Origin: Acetivibrio sp. | GTDB taxonomy: Bacteria > Bacillota > Clostridia > Lachnospirales > Lachnospiraceae | Assembly (NCBI GenBank): GCA_041739345.1 | Contig: JBGSNZ010000012.1 | Span: 1-42,363 of the forward strand | Length of the DNA: 42,363 nt | Direction: 5' to 3' | Shown: piece after piece, positions 34,084 to 41,340 of the stretch | Layout of the letters: every line of letters starts with the position of its first letter | How positions within the stretch are numbered: the stretch's first letter is position 1 | The notes under the pieces: generated by a model | What the model was told of the DNA's origin: nothing | Database searches by the model: none | The model's input: only the letters and a program-made list of their open reading frames with translations | Position numbers and translations under genes: made by a program

Positions 34084-36381
34084 ATGGCTAAGAAGAAAAA
34101 AAAGAAAGCAAAGAAAATGACGCCGGGTAGGAAGAGGCTTCAATTTATTTTTAAAATATTATTATTGTTATTATTGCTAACTATATTAATTGCAGGAATC
34201 TTCCTATATATGAAATATGGAAAAACAGTATTTACGCTGCATGATGAAGCAAATACACTGGTGCGACAGTCAACGACGGAGACTTTTCGACAATCTGAAA
34301 CAAGTGAAGTCTATGATACCAATGGTAAAATAATCACGACATTAAAAGGAACGAAGGATACGTATTATCTAGAATATGACAAGATTCCAGATATGGCAAC
34401 GCAGGCTATGATTTCTATCGAGGATAAAAAATTTCTAAAACATAATGGAATTGATATCAAAGGTATTATTCGTGCGGCGAAGTCGTATGTTGATAACCAT
34501 GGAGAAATTACCCAAGGAGCTAGTACAATTACCCAGCAGTTGAGTCGTAATATTTTTCTGACGCACGAGGTGAGCTGGCAGCGAAAAGCAAAGGAAATAT
34601 TTATTGCTTTAGCAATGGAAAAGAAGTATTCCAAAGAACAAATCATGGAATTTTATATGAATAATATATACTTTGGTAATGGTTATTATGGTATTCAGGC
34701 AGCATGTAAAGGATATTTTAGCACCGATGTTGATGAGTTATCCTTAGCACAGATTACCTACCTTTGTGCAATTCCAAATAATCCAACTCTTTATGATCCA
34801 TTGGAGAACAGCGATAACACCATTAAGCGAAAGAACCGAATTCTGAAACAAATGAATAAAGATGGAGCAATTGGTGATGAAGAATATCGAGAAGCTGTCA
34901 ATGAGGAAATTACGCTAAAGGTTACAAAGAATAAAAAGCGAAATTATATTGAAACATATGTATACAACTGTGCAATTCGTGCACTTATGAAAAATCAAGG
35001 ATTTAACTTCCGATATACCTTTAATTCCGATGAAGAAAAAGAACGCTATCAAGAGCGTTATGACGATGTATATTCGATGTGCCAGCAGTCATTATATAGT
35101 GCAGGTTACCGCATTTACACTTCTATTGATACAAAGAAGCAAAAGCAATTGCAAAAGTCAGTAGATGATGTTTTGGCAGATTTCTCGAGTAAAAACAAGG
35201 ACGGAATTTATGAGTTGCAAGGAGCCGCTACCTGTATCGACAACAATAATGGAAGAGTAGTTGCTATTGTTGGAGGAAGAGAGCAGGATACCATTGGATA
35301 TACATTGAATCGAGCATATCAAAGCTATCGTCAACCTGGAAGCTCGATAAAACCTTTGATTGTATATACACCATCATTTGAGCGGTCGTATACACCAGAC
35401 AGTATTGTTGTAGATGAAAAAATGGAGGATGGACCAAAGAATTCAAATGGATCCTATGCCGGTAAAATTACTGTTCGTACCGCAGTAGAGCAGTCAAAAA
35501 ACTCCATTGCATGGAAATTATTTACAGAATTAACACCAGAAGTTGGGTTACAATATTTATTAAATATGAACTTTGCAAAAATATCGAAAAATGACTATTA
35601 TCCTTCTGCTTCTCTTGGTGGATTAACCAATGGTGTTAGTAGTGTAGAAATGGCTTCTGCATTTGCAACGCTTGAAAATGAAGGCGTATTTAGAGAACCA
35701 ACTTGTATTGTTTCCATTCTTGATTCAAGGGGAAATGAAGTGGTTAGTGAAATCCAGGATACCAAGGTAATCTATGATGCAAATGCAGCGCGCACGATGA
35801 CCGATGTTTTGAAAGGGGTATTTACGAGAGGAACTGCTAGGGGGCTTTCTCTTACCAACATGTCTTGTGCTGGAAAAACTGGAACGACAGATGATAAAAA
35901 AGATGGCTGGTTTGTTGGATATACGCCTTATTACACAACAAGTGTATGGGTTGGCTATGATATTCCAAAGCAACTAGATTCTCTTGCAGGTGCTACATAT
36001 CCGGGAAGTATTTGGAAAACATATATGCAACAGATTCATGAAGGATTAGAAAATATTGGATTTGTTAATTATACCAAAACGGAAGATACTACGGTAAAGG
36101 AGGAAGCAGAAGATGAAGAAAAAGTTCAGGAAAATATTCAGCAAAACGTTCCCGAAGAGCCACCTGTCGAAGCCGACGAGGATGAAAATATACTCGATTT
36201 GGATGCGCCGCTTGAAGGAGAGGAAGACACGACGCAAGATCCAGAAGCTGATTCACAAGGTCCAGAAGGGGAATATGACTATTCAGGCGATACACAAGAT
36301 GAAGAAACTCTGCAAGGGGATGAAGAAGTAACCGTTCCATCCGAAGAAGATATTGTTGAAACACCAGTACCAACCGAATAA
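34084..36381 (+). CDS. class A penicillin-binding protein (bifunctional transglycosylase/transpeptidase, PBP1A-like)
   Basis: N-terminal TM anchor. GT51 motifs EDKKFLKHNGID and GASTITQQL. Transpeptidase SxxK (GSSIKPL), SxN and KTG (AGKTGTTDD) motifs. ~120-aa acidic low-complexity C-terminal tail. Confidence 0.9.
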   Translation: MAKKKKKKAKKMTPGRKRLQFIFKILLLLLLLTILIAGIFLYMKYGKTVFTLHDEANTLVRQSTTETFRQSETSEVYDTNGKIITTLKGTKDTYYLEYDKIPDMATQAMISIEDKKFLKHNGIDIKGIIRAAKSYVDNHGEITQGASTITQQLSRNIFLTHEVSWQRKAKEIFIALAMEKKYSKEQIMEFYMNNIYFGNGYYGIQAACKGYFSTDVDELSLAQITYLCAIPNNPTLYDPLENSDNTIKRKNRILKQMNKDGAIGDEEYREAVNEEITLKVTKNKKRNYIETYVYNCAIRALMKNQGFNFRYTFNSDEEKERYQERYDDVYSMCQQSLYSAGYRIYTSIDTKKQKQLQKSVDDVLADFSSKNKDGIYELQGAATCIDNNNGRVVAIVGGREQDTIGYTLNRAYQSYRQPGSSIKPLIVYTPSFERSYTPDSIVVDEKMEDGPKNSNGSYAGKITVRTAVEQSKNSIAWKLFTELTPEVGLQYLLNMNFAKISKNDYYPSASLGGLTNGVSSVEMASAFATLENEGVFREPTCIVSILDSRGNEVVSEIQDTKVIYDANAARTMTDVLKGVFTRGTARGLSLTNMSCAGKTGTTDDKKDGWFVGYTPYYTTSVWVGYDIPKQLDSLAGATYPGSIWKTYMQQIHEGLENIGFVNYTKTEDTTVKEEAEDEEKVQENIQQNVPEEPPVEADEDENILDLDAPLEGEEDTTQDPEADSQGPEGEYDYSGDTQDEETLQGDEEVTVPSEEDIVETPVPTE

Positions 36382-36450
36382 AAAAGCGTGAAAAATGGAG
36401 CGAATACAAGTGGATATAATCTTCTTGTATTCGCCCCATCTTTATATTCA

Positions 36451-37224
36451 CTACATACTACCGAGAACCTGAATTGCCTTATCTTTTAAGATAAGTTCAA
36501 AGTGTTCTTCAAAGTAGGAATAACTTGCATAGGTAGTTCGTTCTGCTTTGCCATATTCTGATATAATATTGCATATCTTATTAAATTCTTCTGGTGTATG
36601 CTGTGATTTGCTAATCACTAAATAATATTTTTCAGTAGCGTTGTCTTTATATATACTGTTTAGTCCATTGTAAGACTTTGTGATATGCTCGGAAAGACGA
36701 CTAATTTCTTCTAATGATTGAAAGGAAAAAAACTTGGTTAGATTTGTTTGTGTCGCAACATATTTTGGTTCAATTTCGTCTGAGATTTCATCTTCGCTTG
36801 AATCGGAATCCATCGCTTTTTCATCTATATCGGATTCATCATCTAAGCCCATAATCTCATCTATTTTATCAAAACAATGAAGGATTTCATCTGCATAAGC
36901 AACATCTTCTTCTGCATTAAACTCATTAATTTCTTGTTCCGGTGAAAATTTTGAAAAACGAGTATCTAATTCGTCTGGATCTTCAATTTTAGTGATTACA
37001 AGAACTAAACATTCGGCAGAAACTGGAATTGCTTCAATCATCAAAGGAATATCATCTGCTTCAAACCCAAACTGATAAGCTGCTTGTTGCATCATATCAC
37101 GAAAGAGCTCTTTTGCTTTTTCTGTTCCATAAGCAAGTTCACTGATTCTTAGTTCCCTATCCATTAAATCTCTCTTGCTGAGGGTACATCGAATCTGATT
37201 ATCGCTGATTTTTTCAATTTTCAT
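36451..37224 (-). CDS. mecA: adaptor protein MecA
   Basis: MKIEKISDNQIRCTLSKRDLMDREL... N-domain, acidic linker, and C-terminal ClpC-binding domain. The start is set at ATG 37224 (RBS AAAGGATG 8 nt upstream), not the ORF-track start 37329. Confidence 0.8.
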   Translation of the reverse strand: MKIEKISDNQIRCTLSKRDLMDRELRISELAYGTEKAKELFRDMMQQAAYQFGFEADDIPLMIEAIPVSAECLVLVITKIEDPDELDTRFSKFSPEQEINEFNAEEDVAYADEILHCFDKIDEIMGLDDESDIDEKAMDSDSSEDEISDEIEPKYVATQTNLTKFFSFQSLEEISRLSEHITKSYNGLNSIYKDNATEKYYLVISKSQHTPEEFNKICNIISEYGKAERTTYASYSYFEEHFELILKDKAIQVLGSM

Positions 37225-37373
37225 ATAATCACATCCTTTTCTAAATATATCGAACCATCGATATGCAATAGTATCCTTAGTGTATGCGTGATTTAAAAAA
37301 AGTATAAGTGATATCCAAATTAAAGTCAACTAAAAATCAATTGACAAAATTTGCTTATGACACTAAAAATTAA

Positions 37374-37401
37374 TTGACAAAACTTGTTAATAGATTATAA
37401 T
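37374..37401 (+). promoter_or_regulatory. consensus sigma-A promoter abutting the kinase start codon
   Basis: TTGACA (37374-37379), 16-nt spacer, TATAAT (37396-37401). The ATG at 37408 lies 6 nt downstream. Confidence 0.55.
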
Positions 37402-37407
37402 ACTAGT

Positions 37408-38805
37408 ATGAGGTGTAATTTTAAAAAGAAAGGAGCGTTTGTATATAATATTATATGGTTTAATAAATATCGTGTTATTCAAAAACTAGGACAAGGTAGC
37501 AGTGGTATCGTTTATTTAGCTCAGCATGAAATGCTTCATACATACCGAGCAATCAAGCAAATGCCAAAGAAACAAGCAAATGCCCGGTGGATGAATGAAG
37601 TTAACATTTTAAAAATTCTTAGACACCCAAATATTCCTATAGTATATGATATTGAGGAAGATGAAAATTATATCTATATTATTGAAGAATATATAGAGGG
37701 TCAATCTTTACGAGCTTATAAGCTCAGTCAAACAAACATCAATGAAAATAAATTACTCGATTTCTTAATTCAGTTAAGCGAAGTTCTTGATTTTTTACAT
37801 TCTTTAAAACAACCCATTTTATATCTTGATTTAAAACCAGATAATATCTTAATTACAAATAGTCATCAATTAAAGTTGGTGGATTTTGGTACAGCAAAAG
37901 TTTTTCAAAAGGGCAATTCAGTAACTCATTCCTATGGAACAAAAGGATATGCCGCGCCGGAGCAGTATGGTGTGTATAAAGAGGATAAACGCTCGGATAT
38001 ATATGGTCTTGGTGGAATTCTTTTCTTTTTAGCAACAGGAGTTCCTTATATGGGAAGTAAAGAAGAGTTAAAAAATTTGGAACATACAAGCTATTATTCA
38101 AAACAATTTATAATGATTCTTACAAAGTGTTTAAAGTACCAACCGTCTGATCGTTATGCCTCGGTTGATGTGGTCAGGAAAGAAGCCACTTATCTAAAAC
38201 AAACAAAAGCGGACGTATGTGAAAATACACCTCATATTATCACGGTAACGGGTATGATACCCCGTATTGGTACTACTCATATCAGTCTTATGATAACAGC
38301 ATATCTAAATCAAATTGGAATCCCTGCACTTTATATTGAACAAAATGAGTCGCGTGTCGTGGAGCAGCTAAACAAATGCGTGGATAAATATTGGTTGGAA
38401 AAGATACCAATGGCAAGAGGCGATACCAAGCTTTTAATGCAAAGATATCCAAAATTTGATGTATTTATATGCGATTGTGGCGTATTGGTAAATCAAAATA
38501 ATACGTTTGTAGCGAAAGGTAAGAATTTCTTGGTTTTAGGATCTAAACCATGGGAGTGGAAGTTACCAGAACAAGGATTTAAGGGGACCTATTTGTTTAA
38601 TTACACAAAACCAGAAGATTTTGTATACCTTAAAGAGAAGTTAAAAGATACACATTGTGTAAGAGTACCATTTGCATCAGATTGCCTTTCAACGCAGACA
38701 AATCGCTGTGTTAAAGTATTCTTACAGGAGATATTAAACGATGTATTGGAAAAAAAGAAACAGCGATTCTTTTTTAGCAAATCGCGGGAATCAAGAAAGT
38801 ACTAA
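37408..38805 (+). CDS. Hanks-type Ser/Thr protein kinase (non-RD: HRD replaced by YLD) fused to a degenerate ParA/MinD-like P-loop domain
   Basis: Gly-loop LGQGSSGIVY, VAIK-lysine (RAIKQ), catalytic loop LYLDLKPDNIL, DFG (VDFGTAK), APE (GYAAPEQ). C-terminal ~200 aa begins IITVTGMIPRIGTTHIS, a Walker-A-like motif lacking the Lys. The start is uncertain: TTG 37384 lies inside the promoter, and ATG 37408 would be leaderless. Confidence 0.7.
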   Translation: MRCNFKKKGAFVYNIIWFNKYRVIQKLGQGSSGIVYLAQHEMLHTYRAIKQMPKKQANARWMNEVNILKILRHPNIPIVYDIEEDENYIYIIEEYIEGQSLRAYKLSQTNINENKLLDFLIQLSEVLDFLHSLKQPILYLDLKPDNILITNSHQLKLVDFGTAKVFQKGNSVTHSYGTKGYAAPEQYGVYKEDKRSDIYGLGGILFFLATGVPYMGSKEELKNLEHTSYYSKQFIMILTKCLKYQPSDRYASVDVVRKEATYLKQTKADVCENTPHIITVTGMIPRIGTTHISLMITAYLNQIGIPALYIEQNESRVVEQLNKCVDKYWLEKIPMARGDTKLLMQRYPKFDVFICDCGVLVNQNNTFVAKGKNFLVLGSKPWEWKLPEQGFKGTYLFNYTKPEDFVYLKEKLKDTHCVRVPFASDCLSTQTNRCVKVFLQEILNDVLEKKKQRFFFSKSRESRKY

Positions 38806-39319
38806 AATAATTGGAATTGTAGGAACGAATCGGGGAGTCGGCGTAACACACGTTTGCATAATGTTAGCCGAATACCTCACACTGGACAAAGGTTCTTTTG
38901 TTGCCATACTTGAATGTAATGATCATGGTGATTTTAAATGGATGGAGACAAATCTGTTTGGAAAAGGAAAGTTTCCATATTCATTCCATCAAGTACGTTA
39001 TTTTACAGCAGTAGATATGGAAAACTTAGAAGAAATGATGAAAAGCAAGTATGCATATCTTATACTTGACTTTGGCGTACAACTAAAAGGAAAGGAAAAA
39101 GCTCTCAGTCTTTGTCAAAAAAAGATATTACTCGGAGTGGAGTCATGGTGGAAGATAGATGCCATGAATGAAAAAAATTCTCATTTTTTAGCAAAGGGTT
39201 TTCAATGTATATATAACTTAAGCGAGGAGGGAATGCCCTATTCGCCACTAAACAAAGGACCAGGAAAAAAAGCAAAAAAAATATTGGATGAAATTGTGGA
39301 TTTTAAGTTCGTAACGTAA
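38741..39319 (+). CDS. stand-alone degenerate ParA/MinD-like P-loop domain protein (paralog of the kinase C-terminal domain)
   Basis: 192 aa. IIGIVGTNRGVGVTHVCIMLAEYL...AILECND parallels the kinase C-terminal IITVTGMIPRIGTTHISLMITAYL...ALYIEQN, with further matching blocks downstream. It starts in the +1 frame 65 nt before the kinase stop. Confidence 0.55.
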   Translation: MYWKKRNSDSFLANRGNQESTKIIGIVGTNRGVGVTHVCIMLAEYLTLDKGSFVAILECNDHGDFKWMETNLFGKGKFPYSFHQVRYFTAVDMENLEEMMKSKYAYLILDFGVQLKGKEKALSLCQKKILLGVESWWKIDAMNEKNSHFLAKGFQCIYNLSEEGMPYSPLNKGPGKKAKKILDEIVDFKFVT

Positions 39320-39500
39320 TAGAAATTAAGACGTCTCACAAACAAGCAAGACCTTCTTATCCAAATTGTAACCCGTAAACCATGCGTGGACTTGCACCTT
39401 ATATTTTCTATTATGAATGAATAAAATTATGCAAAAAGAGGGGGATGATATATTATAAAATGTAGTAAAATAAGCAAGAGTAAAGAAAATTAAATTAGCC

Positions 39501-39546
39501 CTCTATACATAAAAAGAAACCGGAGAGACGAATATGTTCATCGGTT
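39501..39546. terminator. bidirectional rho-independent terminator
   Basis: AAAGAAACCG-GAGAGACGAATATGTTCAT-CGGTTTCTTT with an A-run upstream and a T-run downstream. Confidence 0.6.
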
Positions 39547-39630
39547 TCTTTTTATGACCGTCTTGTTTCAAATAGAAAGAGGTGTTATACTAGTGTATAC
39601 AATTTTTGTACACAGGAGGAAAATATACGG

Positions 39631-41340
39631 ATGAACGAATCAAAAAATAAGATAAAAGCGGCACTTTTTCTGATTGTTCCGGTCTTTCTTATTGTTGTAA
39701 TTGCCGTAATAGCAAAACAACTCATGCCAAGCAAAGAACGAATTGAACTTACAGATTATTATCCGATAGAAGGTGACGAGCTTTTGCTTGTAATGCAAGA
39801 CGAAATCGCTGAAACAAAAGGATTATATATTGATGGTACTGCATATGTGGATTATGATACAGTAGTTTCCAATTTTAATAAAAGATTTTATTGGGATGCC
39901 AACGAAAATATTGTAATATATACCACCGCTTCTCAGGTTATTAAAGCAGAAGTTGGAGCAAAAGATTACTATGTTAATAAGAGTAAAACGGAAGTTGATT
40001 ATCAGATTGTAAAAGTAGTAAATGATGTAGCATATATTGCTGTTGACTACATTGAACTATTTTCCAATGTAAAATCAACATTATATGAAAATCCGAATCG
40101 TATTGTATTTACTTGCAAGTGGAAGAATGATTATACGGCTTCCAAAGTAAAAAAAGATGCGGTACTTCGTGAAAAACCAGACATCAAAAGTCCGATTGTT
40201 TATGATGTAAAAAAAGGGGACCAGCTAGTATATATTAAGGAAACCGATGAAGAAACCTCGAAAAATTTTCAAAAAGTGATTACAGAAGATGGCGTAATTG
40301 GATTTATTCAGAAAAAACGTTTAAAAGATTCTTATGATTTGGGACTAAAATCAGATTTTAAAGAAGAATCGTATTCATCCATTACAAAAGATTATAAAAT
40401 AAATATGGTTTGGCATCAGGTAACGAACCAAGACGCAAACAATTCGCTATTAAACCTTTTGGATGCGACCAAGGGAGTCACTACAATTTCACCTACCTGG
40501 TTTTCTTTAGCTAGTAATAAAGGAGAAATCACTTCCCTTGCAAGTGAAACCTATGTTAATAGAGCGCATAGTGCTGGAGTCGAAGTATGGGCATTATGTG
40601 ATGATTTCAATACTGAAAATGTGAATACTTTTAAATTATTGTCGTATACTTCCAGAAGAGAAAAACTTGAAAATGAGTTAATTGCATCGGCAATTAAATA
40701 TAACTTAGATGGTCTTAATATTGATTTTGAAAAGATTTCTTCTAAGGCGGCAACTCATTTTATACAGTTCATACGTGAATTATCTGTAAAATGCAGAAGC
40801 AATGGGATTGTATTATCAGTGGATAACTACGCGCCTGGATATACAGGATATTATGACAGGCAAGAACAGGGAATTGTCGCAGATTATGTAATTACCATGG
40901 CATATGATGAGCATACAGGTGGTTCCAAAGAAAGTGGATCAGTTTCATCGATTGAATATTTTACCGATGCGATTACAAATACCATAAAAGAAGTACCAGC
41001 GGAAAAAACCATTATCGGAATTCCGTTCTATACTAGACTGTGGAAAGAAGTAACAGAAGGTGAACAAGTTACCGTAAGTAGTGAAGCTTATGGTATGGTA
41101 AATGGTGCAAATCTATTAACGGATAATGGAGTTACGACCTATTGGGATGAAACTTCTGGACAAAATTATGGAGAATTTGAGGCCGATGGAGCAACGTATC
41201 GCATGTGGCTTGAAGATGCACAATCAATTGAACTGAAAATGAAAGCAGTTGAGGAAGCGAATGTGGCTGGAGTAGCCGGTTGGAAACTTGGGCTTGAGTC
41301 ATCCAGCATATGGGATGTTATTATAAAATATGTAAACTAA
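39631..41340 (+). CDS. membrane-anchored glycoside hydrolase family 18 protein (YaaH/YdhD-like spore peptidoglycan hydrolase type)
   Basis: N-terminal TM helix. Central SH3b-like segment. GH18 catalytic motif LDGLNIDFE (DxxDxDxE) and downstream MAYD. Confidence 0.8.
   Translation: MNESKNKIKAALFLIVPVFLIVVIAVIAKQLMPSKERIELTDYYPIEGDELLLVMQDEIAETKGLYIDGTAYVDYDTVVSNFNKRFYWDANENIVIYTTASQVIKAEVGAKDYYVNKSKTEVDYQIVKVVNDVAYIAVDYIELFSNVKSTLYENPNRIVFTCKWKNDYTASKVKKDAVLREKPDIKSPIVYDVKKGDQLVYIKETDEETSKNFQKVITEDGVIGFIQKKRLKDSYDLGLKSDFKEESYSSITKDYKINMVWHQVTNQDANNSLLNLLDATKGVTTISPTWFSLASNKGEITSLASETYVNRAHSAGVEVWALCDDFNTENVNTFKLLSYTSRREKLENELIASAIKYNLDGLNIDFEKISSKAATHFIQFIRELSVKCRSNGIVLSVDNYAPGYTGYYDRQEQGIVADYVITMAYDEHTGGSKESGSVSSIEYFTDAITNTIKEVPAEKTIIGIPFYTRLWKEVTEGEQVTVSSEAYGMVNGANLLTDNGVTTYWDETSGQNYGEFEADGATYRMWLEDAQSIELKMKAVEEANVAGVAGWKLGLESSSIWDVIIKYVN

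Follow-up and report, generated by a model that had tools for sequence, protein, structure and literature searches.

Leaderless mRNAs, a subject treated in PMC4633059 and PMC4007540, are known from a range of systems. Examples are lambda cI, Tn1721 tetR and many mycobacterial and Deinococcus genes. True leaderless genes keep their 5' AUG in frame across orthologues and usually have no Shine-Dalgarno (SD) sequence. Conserved near-cognate start codons that follow a strong SD are found in infC (AUU/AUA), E. coli pcnB (AUU), S. aureus and B. subtilis ccpN (AUA) and S. aureus cvfC1 (AUU), and AUU and AUA starts of this kind are conserved in another Firmicute, where their efficiency is about 10% of that of AUG (PMC13009471). 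The gene for a Hanks-type Ser/Thr kinase that is described here resembles both of these groups in part and differs from each of them. It also bears comparison with the STAB-SD 5' mRNA stabilisers, such as that of B. thuringiensis cryIIIA, which form part of long leaders and have a demonstrated stabilising effect on mRNA.

The kinase ORF occupies positions 37408..38805 on the + strand of the window, which is the whole 42,363-base stretch of DNA that was analysed, and it encodes a kinase domain from residue 21 (Pfam Pkinase E=5.6e-48) and a C-terminal non-kinase domain. Its divergent neighbour on the - strand, at 36451..37224, is mecA, which encodes the adaptor protein MecA (Pfam MecA E=4.2e-70) and has the sequence AAAGGATGTG upstream of its start, with 5 more nt before ATG 37224. 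The kinase would have 465 aa if counted from ATG 37408 and 451 aa if counted from ATT 37450, and a search of NCBIfam assigned no specific family to the kinase or to the downstream ORF. Orthologues of the kinase were found, their loci are syntenic, and the compared set comprises about 17 other lineages beside the window, labelled L001 and so on. The L001 kinase has 85% protein identity to that of the window, with coding sequences that are 87% identical overall, and L002 is a metagenome contig that is 98% identical to the window. Conservation of the promoter, of TATAATA and of the ATT-ATA codon pair was scored over 12 aligned loci, and the kinases of the loci compared for the promoter are merely 45-87% identical. 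A kinase-alignment scan of genome contigs relied on generic kinase motifs and brought back mostly non-orthologous kinases, the informative ones being L005-L010, L012, L013 and L066 only, and a pattern search of metagenome contigs with TATAATACNANTRTGAGGTGTAA gave a single match, in the unrelated, intragenic L090.

Our preferred account, to which we give a probability of about 50% as a whole, combines a single conserved promoter that was duplicated in one lineage with an ancestral SD-led start at a near-cognate codon and a newer, leaderless route into the same protein. The kinase appears to be kept at a low, IF3-sensitive level of expression through a near-cognate start, a leaderless start or both, and a small promoter duplication and a 1-nt insertion seem to have rewired its transcriptional coupling and its translational entry point in one lineage. 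No new principle is involved, and the locus is of interest as a clean natural test case for the origin of leaderless genes.

The kinase promoter and its duplicated module

The hexamers TTGACA (37374-37379) and TATAAT (37396..37401, + strand), which are separated by a 16-nt spacer, match the promoter consensus at 12/12 positions and form the sole TTGACA-N16-18-TATAAT arrangement in the 42,363 bases, where 0.09 would be expected. The 12 aligned loci share TTGAC, the spacer length and TATAATA, the last of these without a single change, and the spacer motif AAAATTTGT is also conserved among the loci compared. The sequence-only reading of this DNA had proposed that the distal member of a repeat forms a perfect promoter, which is borne out by the match and by its conservation at orthologous loci, and the distal box and TATAAT are, on this evidence, a real and conserved promoter of the sigma-A (sigma-70) type. 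It had also placed TTG 37384 inside the promoter spacer, correctly so; this codon is not the kinase start, because the orthologous stretch is non-coding and has in-frame stops. Back to back with the kinase promoter lies a promoter-like site for mecA (37301..37329, - strand), consisting of TTGACT (37329..37324), 17 nt and TATACT (37306..37301), with a 10/12 match; its hexamers, which read AAAGTCAAC and AGTATAAGTGA when taken from the + strand, are retained at the orthologous loci. The kinase would thus be served by one conserved promoter in a familiar arrangement of back-to-back sigma-A promoters, with an upstream A-tract and, in the ancestral single-copy state, with kinase and mecA -35 boxes that are 11 bp apart. 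The window lineage departs from this arrangement in that the -35 and spacer module is duplicated, which adds 33 bp between the two promoters.

The tandem 33-bp direct repeats that had been noted at 37332-37364 and 37365-37397 are confirmed by a repeat search, which returned a 30-nt direct repeat at 37329-37358 and 37362-37391 (87% identical, 33 nt start-to-start), and in full register the two units, 37329-37361 (33 nt) and 37362-37395 (34 nt), are identical at 28/34 positions. Their shared core, written as a 22-nt degenerate pattern, matches exactly twice in the window as against 0.04 expected from shuffles. Tandem Repeats Finder reported no repeat at the duplicated box, because two diverged copies score below its threshold. 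Copy 1 (37329..37361, + strand) consists of an A-tract, TTGACA (37341-37346) and a diverged spacer, has no good -10 (the nearest candidate being AAAAAT at 18 nt) and abuts the mecA -35 box, like the single unit of the orthologues; because 10/12 of its promoter positions match, it could act as a weak second promoter. Copy 2 (37362..37395, + strand) consists of an A-tract, the TTGACA -35 box and the 16-nt spacer, and agrees with the lone unit of L001 at 31/35 positions. Both copies have ACTAAAAAT-AATTGACAAAA nearly intact.

The duplication is present in the window and L002 only. A single unit, with the -35 box of mecA on one side and the kinase -10 box on the other, is found in L001, L003/L005, L004, L085/86, L087, L088, L089 and L091-L094, and in alignment window positions 37351-37380 are unmatched in 6/6 of the orthologues aligned. 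The intergenic DNA that flanks the duplication is 105/106 identical between the window and L001, as against 28/34 for the two copies when compared with each other. Read from this distribution, the duplicated box is a lineage-specific promoter duplication rather than a conserved repeat-binding site, and the earlier suggestion of a repeat-binding regulator site common to mecA and the kinase fails, because all other lineages carry one unit. In the lineage of the window, the segment of 33-34 bp that links the mecA -35 box to the kinase -10 box was duplicated in tandem. Copy 1 would have remained beside the mecA promoter, with its A-tract and TTGACA where the UP element of mecA (an A/T-rich upstream promoter element) would sit, and copy 2, joined to TATAAT, would be the working kinase promoter. 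The divergent promoters would by this event have moved three helical turns apart, with no conserved regulator site involved.

Translation signals ahead of the kinase domain

The ATG at 37408-37410 begins 6 nt past the -10 hexamer, at the predicted +1, and shares the reading frame of the kinase in the window. No other ATG of the window both opens an ORF of 60 aa or more and follows a good -10, itself preceded by a -35, at a distance of 5-8 nt. Its position bears out the earlier statement that it falls where transcription is expected to start, the most likely predicted start being at A37408 or no more than 2 nt from it. A leaderless kinase mRNA is therefore physically possible in the window genome, and to this extent the proposal of a leaderless transcript stands; it does not stand as a description of the gene in general, since a comparison with orthologues finds that ATG 37408 is not the conserved start and that its counterpart lies in another frame, is stopped or is absent in most lineages. 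The ATG belongs to a conserved 5' block, ATGAGGTGTAA (37408..37418, + strand), which lies at the predicted transcript start and contains an SD-like GAGGTG. The block, TATAAT-N6-(A/G)TGAGGTGTAA, is conserved as DNA, and its frame relative to the kinase varies. It is found 6 nt after the -10 in the window, L001, L085, L087, L088 and L089, and in a GTG form in L003, L091 and L092. The initial (A/G)TG is in the kinase frame only in the window/L002, L003 (GTG) and L088. In L001, L085/86, L087, L089, L091, L092, L093, L006 and L009 it lies in another frame or meets a stop after 1-4 codons, and the block is absent from L004 and L094. Because the block is out of frame in the closest relatives, and because the ATG stands at -47 from the W17 codon in L001, L085 and L087 as against -48 in the window, the in-frame ATG of the window is a derived state on the kinase tree, reached through a 1-nt insertion. 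Comparison with STAB-SD elements is prompted by the GAGGTG, which falls inside the opening 8 nt of the predicted transcript and has no usable start after it in most lineages; a point of difference is that the SD-likeness is lost in L009 (GAGATG) and L093.

The SD sequence AAAGGAG (37429..37435, + strand) had been set aside in the sequence-only reading, and it is instead the most conserved translation signal of the region. It is present as AAAGGAG or AAAGGGG in 13/13 clade loci, where it keeps a near-fixed distance from the conserved IIWF motif and mostly stands 20 nt ahead of the W17 codon. The accompanying statement that no in-frame ATG, GTG or TTG follows it before the Gly loop is correct for the window, since TTG 37384 and ATG 37408 are the only canonical in-frame starts between the stop at 37375 and the Gly loop. 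In L085/86, L087, L091, L006 and L010 there is no in-frame ATG, GTG or TTG anywhere from the last stop to the W17 codon (that of the L equivalent in L010). What heads the conserved protein region at all 12 aligned loci is the codon pair ATT ATA (37450..37455, + strand; Ile15 and Ile16), which is invariant at the codon level in 12/12, in an alignment in which a single codon is kept in just 8/82 invariant-residue columns and the three other invariant Ile columns use 2-3 codons each. These are the sole in-frame near-cognate codons in L085 and L091, and L087 adds an in-frame ATT at -9. From 37423 on, the window and L001 agree over 68 nt without a difference, as compared with the 87% identity of the coding sequences overall. 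The fixed position of the SD, the five lineages with no canonical start and the invariant ATT-ATA together make SD-led initiation at a near-cognate codon, probably ATT 37450, the most likely conserved route into the kinase.

In its conserved SD, in the lineages that have no canonical start and in its invariant ATT/ATA, the kinase is like the genes with near-cognate starts, and for a regulatory protein such as this a low level of expression is plausible. It is unlike them in its spacing. The candidate start ATT 37450 lies 14 nt after GGAG in the window, and the same spacing is seen in most clade loci, whereas 15 window genes with GGAG have 6-12 nt between GGAG and start; a good distance of 7 nt after GGAGG is found only for the ATT of L006 and the ATC of L010, and a second purine tract precedes the ATT by 6-9 nt in L088, L089, L091 and L092. 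AUU initiation in the window would, by this spacing, be very weak. A further difference is that some kinase lineages have gained canonical starts by different routes. In L004, L089 and L092-L094 a GTG or TTG is fused to the SD or stands 2 nt past it, and might be used despite the short spacing. Synonymous TAT/TAC changes at Y13 between lineages hint that codons upstream of the ATT may be translated in some of them. The stretch 37408-37500 is unstructured (MFE -7 kcal/mol, z = +1.14 against shuffled sequences), and since it folds no more stably than shuffled sequence, no riboswitch or attenuator is indicated; a scan of 36300-38000 against Rfam (E up to 1) turned up just two sub-threshold chance matches, at 36376-36458 and 36786-36865, which are outside the region of interest.

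The transcript that we envisage would begin with the conserved block AUGAGGUGUAA, continue through an unstructured A-rich linker and reach the SD. Translation in the ancestral state would have been SD-led, with a weak and IF3-sensitive start that was most likely AUU 37450. The linker, which reads TTTT in the window and TTG in L001, has gained 1 nt in the lineage of the window. This insertion brings the 5'-terminal AUG into frame, so that leaderless initiation, as a recent addition, can now also yield the kinase, in a form that is longer by 14 N-terminal residues. Should transcription begin exactly at A37408, AUG 37408 could easily outcompete AUU 37450. The features themselves, the extent to which they are conserved, the shifts of frame and the absence of canonical starts from relatives are observed directly, and from these we infer where transcription starts, that AUU is used and what share of protein each route contributes.

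Alternative routes into the kinase

A purely leaderless kinase mRNA, with transcription from A37408, 70S ribosomes on the 5' AUG and an AAAGGAG that merely encodes Lys-Gly, seems to us rather unlikely. It agrees with known leaderless mRNAs in that the ATG lies at the expected start of a strong-promoter transcript, exactly 6 nt past a perfect -10, and opens a long ORF in frame as the sole canonical start downstream of the promoter. Of about 16 lineages, 12 have an ATG or GTG at the matching position. Even the Roseburia hominis block, ATGAGATGT, encodes MRC, and in L093, L009 and L006 the ATG is kept 6-7 nt after the -10 despite a wholly diverged discriminator, which argues that a 5'-terminal start codon has a function of its own and counts against the SD-led reading. 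The frame of the triplet, however, is not that of a true leaderless gene. In most lineages, the 85%-identical L001 among them, the triplet lies in another frame or is stopped, with the state of the window derived, and in three lineages it is GTG, a poor leaderless start. A conserved SD lies 21 nt downstream, and the SD and ATT-ATA are conserved at the nucleotide level. The other scorable genes of the window (25 ORFs of at least 150 aa) have an SD-like motif 6-12 nt before the start, and in the relative C. phytofermentans few transcripts are leaderless (PMC5171806).

The conservation of (A/G)TG at +1 regardless of frame could also be explained, though we consider it unlikely, if the 5' block were a ribosome-loading device, either a leaderless mini-ORF or a 5'-terminal SD-like standby site or stabiliser, from which ribosomes are handed over to the SD and the near-cognate start by termination-reinitiation or sliding, and which became fused with the kinase ORF in the window. 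In five lineages the 5' ORF stops after 1-4 codons, 5-12 nt before the SD (after MRCN in L001, VR in L091, MV in L093, MT in L006, and M or MRC in L092), and in L001 the stop TGA of the mini-ORF overlaps an in-frame TTG as TTGA; five lineages have a kinase with no canonical start; and SD sequences enhance reinitiation, while IF3 governs leaderless, near-cognate and reinitiation events alike (PMC2268962). Against this, the out-of-frame ORFs of L085, L087, L089 and L009 are 18-40 codons long and run through the kinase start, so that the architecture is not uniform. By our own estimate, about 1/4 of AT-rich frames would by chance contain a stop in their first 4 codons, and L004 and L094 have no block at all. 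A broader proposal along these lines, distinctly unlikely in our judgement, is that the Lachnospiraceae kinase family has largely given up a canonical start in favour of a two-part, IF3-sensitive device, in which a 5'-end start codon, often with the SD-like GAGGUG, loads ribosomes as a leaderless mini-ORF or standby site, AAAGGAG captures them and the invariant AUU initiates; the 1-nt insertion in the window would have fused both parts into a leaderless kinase gene, and the window would be a snapshot of a gene that is switching its mode of initiation. We hold it very unlikely that the two boxes are tandem regulator sites shared by mecA and the kinase, or that the upstream box is a second promoter, P1, which gives a leadered transcript. 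The near-complete ACTAAAAAT-AATTGACAAAA in both copies and the 10/12 match with AAAAAT at 18 nt would suit such roles, but the single copy in all other lineages means that no repeat architecture is conserved, AAAAAT has no -12 T, a P1 transcript would have a leader with no SD ahead of ATG 37408 and TTG 37384, and the conservation of copy 1 is explained by its place upstream of the mecA -35 box. Finally, it is highly improbable that the leaderless ATG is universal and that programmed -1 frameshifting or transcriptional slippage in the A-rich linker joins its frame to that of the kinase in the out-of-frame relatives. The linkers of L085 (A AAA AAA G) and L087 (C AAA AAG) would permit it, with a -1 product, MRCNKK..KG.., like that of the window, but L001 has no slippery site and stops after 4 codons, L089 would need +1 rather than -1, L091, L093 and L006 stop after 2 codons, and folding predicts no stimulatory structure downstream. 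Frameshifting or slippage fits L085 at best and was rejected as a general mechanism. Two other candidates were also discarded. One is a +1 frameshift from the invariant out-of-frame ATG 37455 (ATG GTT TAA), in which the stop that follows GTT is a mere consequence of codon 19 and is absent in L085, L088, L089 and L092, and for which GUU-to-UUU re-pairing is poor. The other is TTG 37439, located 3 nt downstream of the SD, whose frame is not that of the kinase and closes after 16 codons.

Start calls in public annotations

Public start calls for this kinase are inconsistent. Some fall on a TTG that lies within the promoter, some on the ATG at +1, and some on internal Met codons, the use of which deletes the Gly loop. 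The comparison of loci explains these inconsistent calls and names the signals that are truly conserved. In lineages with no canonical start the gene callers resort to internal Met codons, at the expense of the Gly loop, and about 9% of the closest 120 homologues are truncated at an internal Met.

A conserved Shine-Dalgarno sequence and the kinase start

The ORF downstream of the repeats encodes a Hanks-type Ser/Thr kinase (Pfam Pkinase, E=5.6e-48, domain from residue 21) that has a non-kinase domain at its C-terminus. Among named homologues, the closest comes from the Lachnospiraceae genus Velocimicrobium. As the sequence-only reading had reported, AAAGGAG lies at 37429-37435 and is followed by no in-frame ATG, GTG or TTG before the Gly loop. 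Every clade locus has AAAGGAG or AAAGGGG, in most cases 20 nt before the Trp codon (W17) of the conserved IIWF motif, and in five independent lineages (L085/86, L087, L091, L006 and L010) in-frame ATG, GTG and TTG are absent from the last stop to the conserved (I/L)(W/L)F-x-KY motif. The only in-frame near-cognate codons common to the clade are the ATT and ATA just before W17 (I15 and I16; 37450-37455 in the window); ATT stands 7 nt after GGAGG in L006, as does ATC in L010, and a second purine tract lies 6-9 nt before ATT in L088, L089, L091 and L092. In a codon analysis of 12 loci, a single codon is kept in just 8 of the 82 columns of invariant, degenerate residues, and these include ATT (I15), ATA (I16) and GTT (V23), clustered at 37450-37480, while the three other invariant Ile columns use 2-3 codons each. 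The window and L001, the locus with 85% protein identity, are identical over 68 nt from 37423 as compared to 87% over the whole CDS. The 5' region is unstructured by fold prediction and matches no Rfam family.

Gene callers have taken internal Met codons in the lineages that lack a canonical start, and the homologues P0005, P0006 and P0012 as annotated are without the Gly loop and the catalytic Lys. This is the case for 11 (~9%) of the closest 120 kinase homologues, namely these three and P0031, P0032, P0040, P0054, P0063, P0078, P0094 and P0097; in several further members of the 120, Ile takes the place of the initiator Met found in most. For L085, L087 and L091, the three checked at the DNA level, the truncated annotation results from the absence of a canonical in-frame start upstream.

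L007, L008, L066 and many homologues with the motif GKE(S/R)M(P/Q)QEIWF are distant orthologues with an ATG start just 3 nt past AAAGGAG, an unusually short gap as compared to the 6-12 nt in the other genes of the window. The entire kinase family thus seems to be marked by a weak or strained initiation region and, largely without a canonical start behind its conserved Shine-Dalgarno (SD) sequence, fits the known class of regulatory genes with near-cognate starts. We consider this family-wide feature to be of more interest than either the repeat or a leaderless reading of the transcript.

The kinase promoter and the triplet at its predicted start

The kinase promoter is real. TTGACA (37374), a 16-nt spacer and TATAAT (37396-37401) match at 12 of 12 positions, and a perfect TTGACA-N16-18-TATAAT occurs once in 42 kb against 0.09 expected. 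The ATG at 37408 begins 6 nt past the -10 box, where it had been placed from sequence, and is the sole window ATG that both lies 5-8 nt past a good promoter and opens a reading frame of 60 aa or more. The block TTGACAAAATTTGT...TATAAT-ACNANT-(A/G)TGAGGTGTAA is near-invariant across loci whose kinases are merely 45-87% identical, and intergenic conservation is at least as high as that of the coding sequence. In more distant loci the discriminators are unalignable, yet an ATG is kept 6-7 nt past the -10: TATAAT-AAATAC-ATGGTGTGA in L093, TATAAA-GGTTGC-ATGAGATGTG in L009 (Roseburia hominis) and TATAAT-CTGTTAT-ATGACATAA in L006 ([Clostridium] polysaccharolyticum).

The frame of this +1 triplet relative to the kinase was scored locus by locus. 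It is in frame and open in the window and L002 (ATG), L003 (GTG) and L088 (ATG). The ATG is out of frame in L001 (MRCN, then stop) and in L085 and L087, where a TAA of the kinase frame lies within GAGGTGTAA; L089 has ATG in the other frame, L091 an in-frame GTG with a stop after 2 codons, L093 and L006 an out-of-frame ATG with a stop after 2 codons, and L009 an out-of-frame ORF of 40 codons from its ATG, and the triplet is absent from L004 and L094. Neighbour-joining of the kinases pairs the window with L001, and L004, L085, L087 and L003 branch outside this pair; the ATG is at -47 from the W17 codon in L001, L085 and L087 and at -48 in the window. Together these indicate that the window's in-frame state is derived, its linker having gained 1 nt (TAATTTTAAAAAG vs TAATTGAAAAAG). 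Judged from this comparison, the conserved start of the kinase is not the +1 ATG.

The proposal of a leaderless kinase mRNA is therefore possible for the window, where the ATG is in frame at the predicted +1, but as a derived condition and not as the conserved mechanism. If the transcript begins exactly at A37408, 70S ribosomes could use the 5'-terminal AUG, and, with that AUG now in frame, the product would be the kinase with 14 extra residues. Two points speak against giving such initiation a high prior: in the related C. phytofermentans leaderless transcripts are rare (4% of intergenic starts), and the genes concerned usually have an additional start site and an ordinary ribosome-binding site (PMC5171806); and the other scorable window genes have an SD-like motif 6-12 nt upstream of the start. 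Initiation at ATT 37450 would itself be weak in the window, given its distance of 14 nt from GGAG; the distance is 6-12 nt in the 15 window genes with GGAG, and GTA, TAT and AAT stand in frame at 5, 8 and 11 nt. In S. aureus, conserved AUU/AUA starts with a strong SD yield ~10% of AUG (PMC13009471). Leaderless and near-cognate routes are both antagonised by IF3 (PMC2268962), so that either one would hold kinase levels low. Our reading of the sequences is that an ancestral SD and near-cognate route has probably been kept, with leaderless entry superimposed on it recently.

An ATG or GTG is kept 6-7 nt past the -10 whether or not it is in the kinase frame (window 37408-37418; L001, L085, L087, L089, L091-L093, L006 and L009). 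In five lineages it opens a mini-ORF of 1-4 codons that ends 5-12 nt before the SD; the mini-ORF stop in L001 overlaps an in-frame TTG, as TTGA, and in Roseburia hominis MRC is still encoded at this place (ATGAGATGT). The conserved triplet could represent a leaderless mini-ORF, or an SD-like standby or stabiliser site, that loads ribosomes ahead of a weak start. The architecture is not uniform, since in other lineages the ORF runs 18-40 codons through the kinase start. Frameshift models were rejected as a general explanation.

Duplication of the upstream half of the promoter

Reading 36900-37800 bore out all of the earlier statements about the sequence, including two 33-nt direct-repeat strings at 37332-37364 and 37365-37397. 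A repeat search pairs 37329-37358 with 37362-37391 as direct repeats of 30 nt (87% identity, 33-nt spacing); taken in full register, the two units span 37329-37361 (copy 1) and 37362-37395 (copy 2), with identity at 28/34 positions. The window has two occurrences of a degenerate 22-mer built from the core, where 0.04 are expected, and Tandem Repeats Finder makes no call for the two-copy repeat. Upstream regions were compared for 13 loci of the clade and for a number of more distant ones. Among the loci extracted, only the window and L002 (a metagenome contig; 98% protein identity) have two units, and one unit is found in L001, L003/L005, L004, L085/86, L087, L088, L089 and L091-L094. The single unit of L001, L003-L004, L085, L087 and L089 begins right past the mecA -35 box (AAAGTCA, then AC...) and ends right before TATAAT; in single-copy loci the mecA and kinase -35 boxes are back to back with 11 bp between, and in a seven-locus alignment 37351-37380 lacks a counterpart in each of the orthologues. 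The intergenic DNA flanking the repeat is identical between the window and L001 at 105 of 106 positions. The copies differ at 6 of 34 positions, most of them towards the 3' end (the spacer) of copy 1, which fits relaxed constraint where copy 1 no longer serves as promoter spacer.

The repeat is thus a recent and ordinary duplication, specific to one lineage, of the promoter's upstream half. Copy 1 has stayed at the ancestral position adjoining the mecA promoter, and copy 2 is attached to the -10. The divergent mecA (37224..36451; Pfam E=4.2e-70) has a promoter-like site, TTGACT (37329..37324), 17 nt and TATACT (37306..37301), that directly adjoins copy 1, whose A-tract and TTGACA at about -40 to -60 of mecA would occupy the position expected of an UP element (A/T-rich upstream promoter element). 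A repeat-binding regulator shared with mecA is unsupported, given a single unit in all compared loci except the window and L002. As to the suggested second promoter, the upstream box, paired with an AAAAAT 18 nt away, matches at 10/12 positions and may be a weak promoter, but the feature is not conserved.

Gene neighbourhood

The order PBP1A, mecA (minus strand), kinase, small P-loop-like ORF and GH18/SH3/Cu_amine_oxidN1 protein (window 34084-41340) recurs in the Lachnospiraceae contigs L001-L004, L085, L087, L089, L093 and L094, and this conserved order suggests a signalling module linked to the cell wall or to proteolysis. The mecA 5' UTR (minus-strand RNA) contains at 37247-37264 a perfect 7-bp inverted repeat, ATATCGA-ACCA-TCGATAT, which fold prediction pairs into a hairpin; the leader around it is highly conserved, L003 keeps both arms with the loop ATTT, and the arms are changed in L004. 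This repeat could act as a hairpin in the RNA or as an operator. The kinase C-terminal domain (38218-38805; TGxxxRxGTTH) shows distant similarity to a 192-aa ORF that follows it (38741-39319; GTNRGVGVTH) and overlaps the kinase ORF by 65 nt. BLASTP gives E=4e-5 with 19% identity over 142 aa, and no Pfam or NCBIfam family matches either of them. The PBP1A ORF (34084-36381) ends in a long, acidic, low-complexity C-terminal tail (36100-36381) that is rich in Glu, Asp, Pro and Thr.
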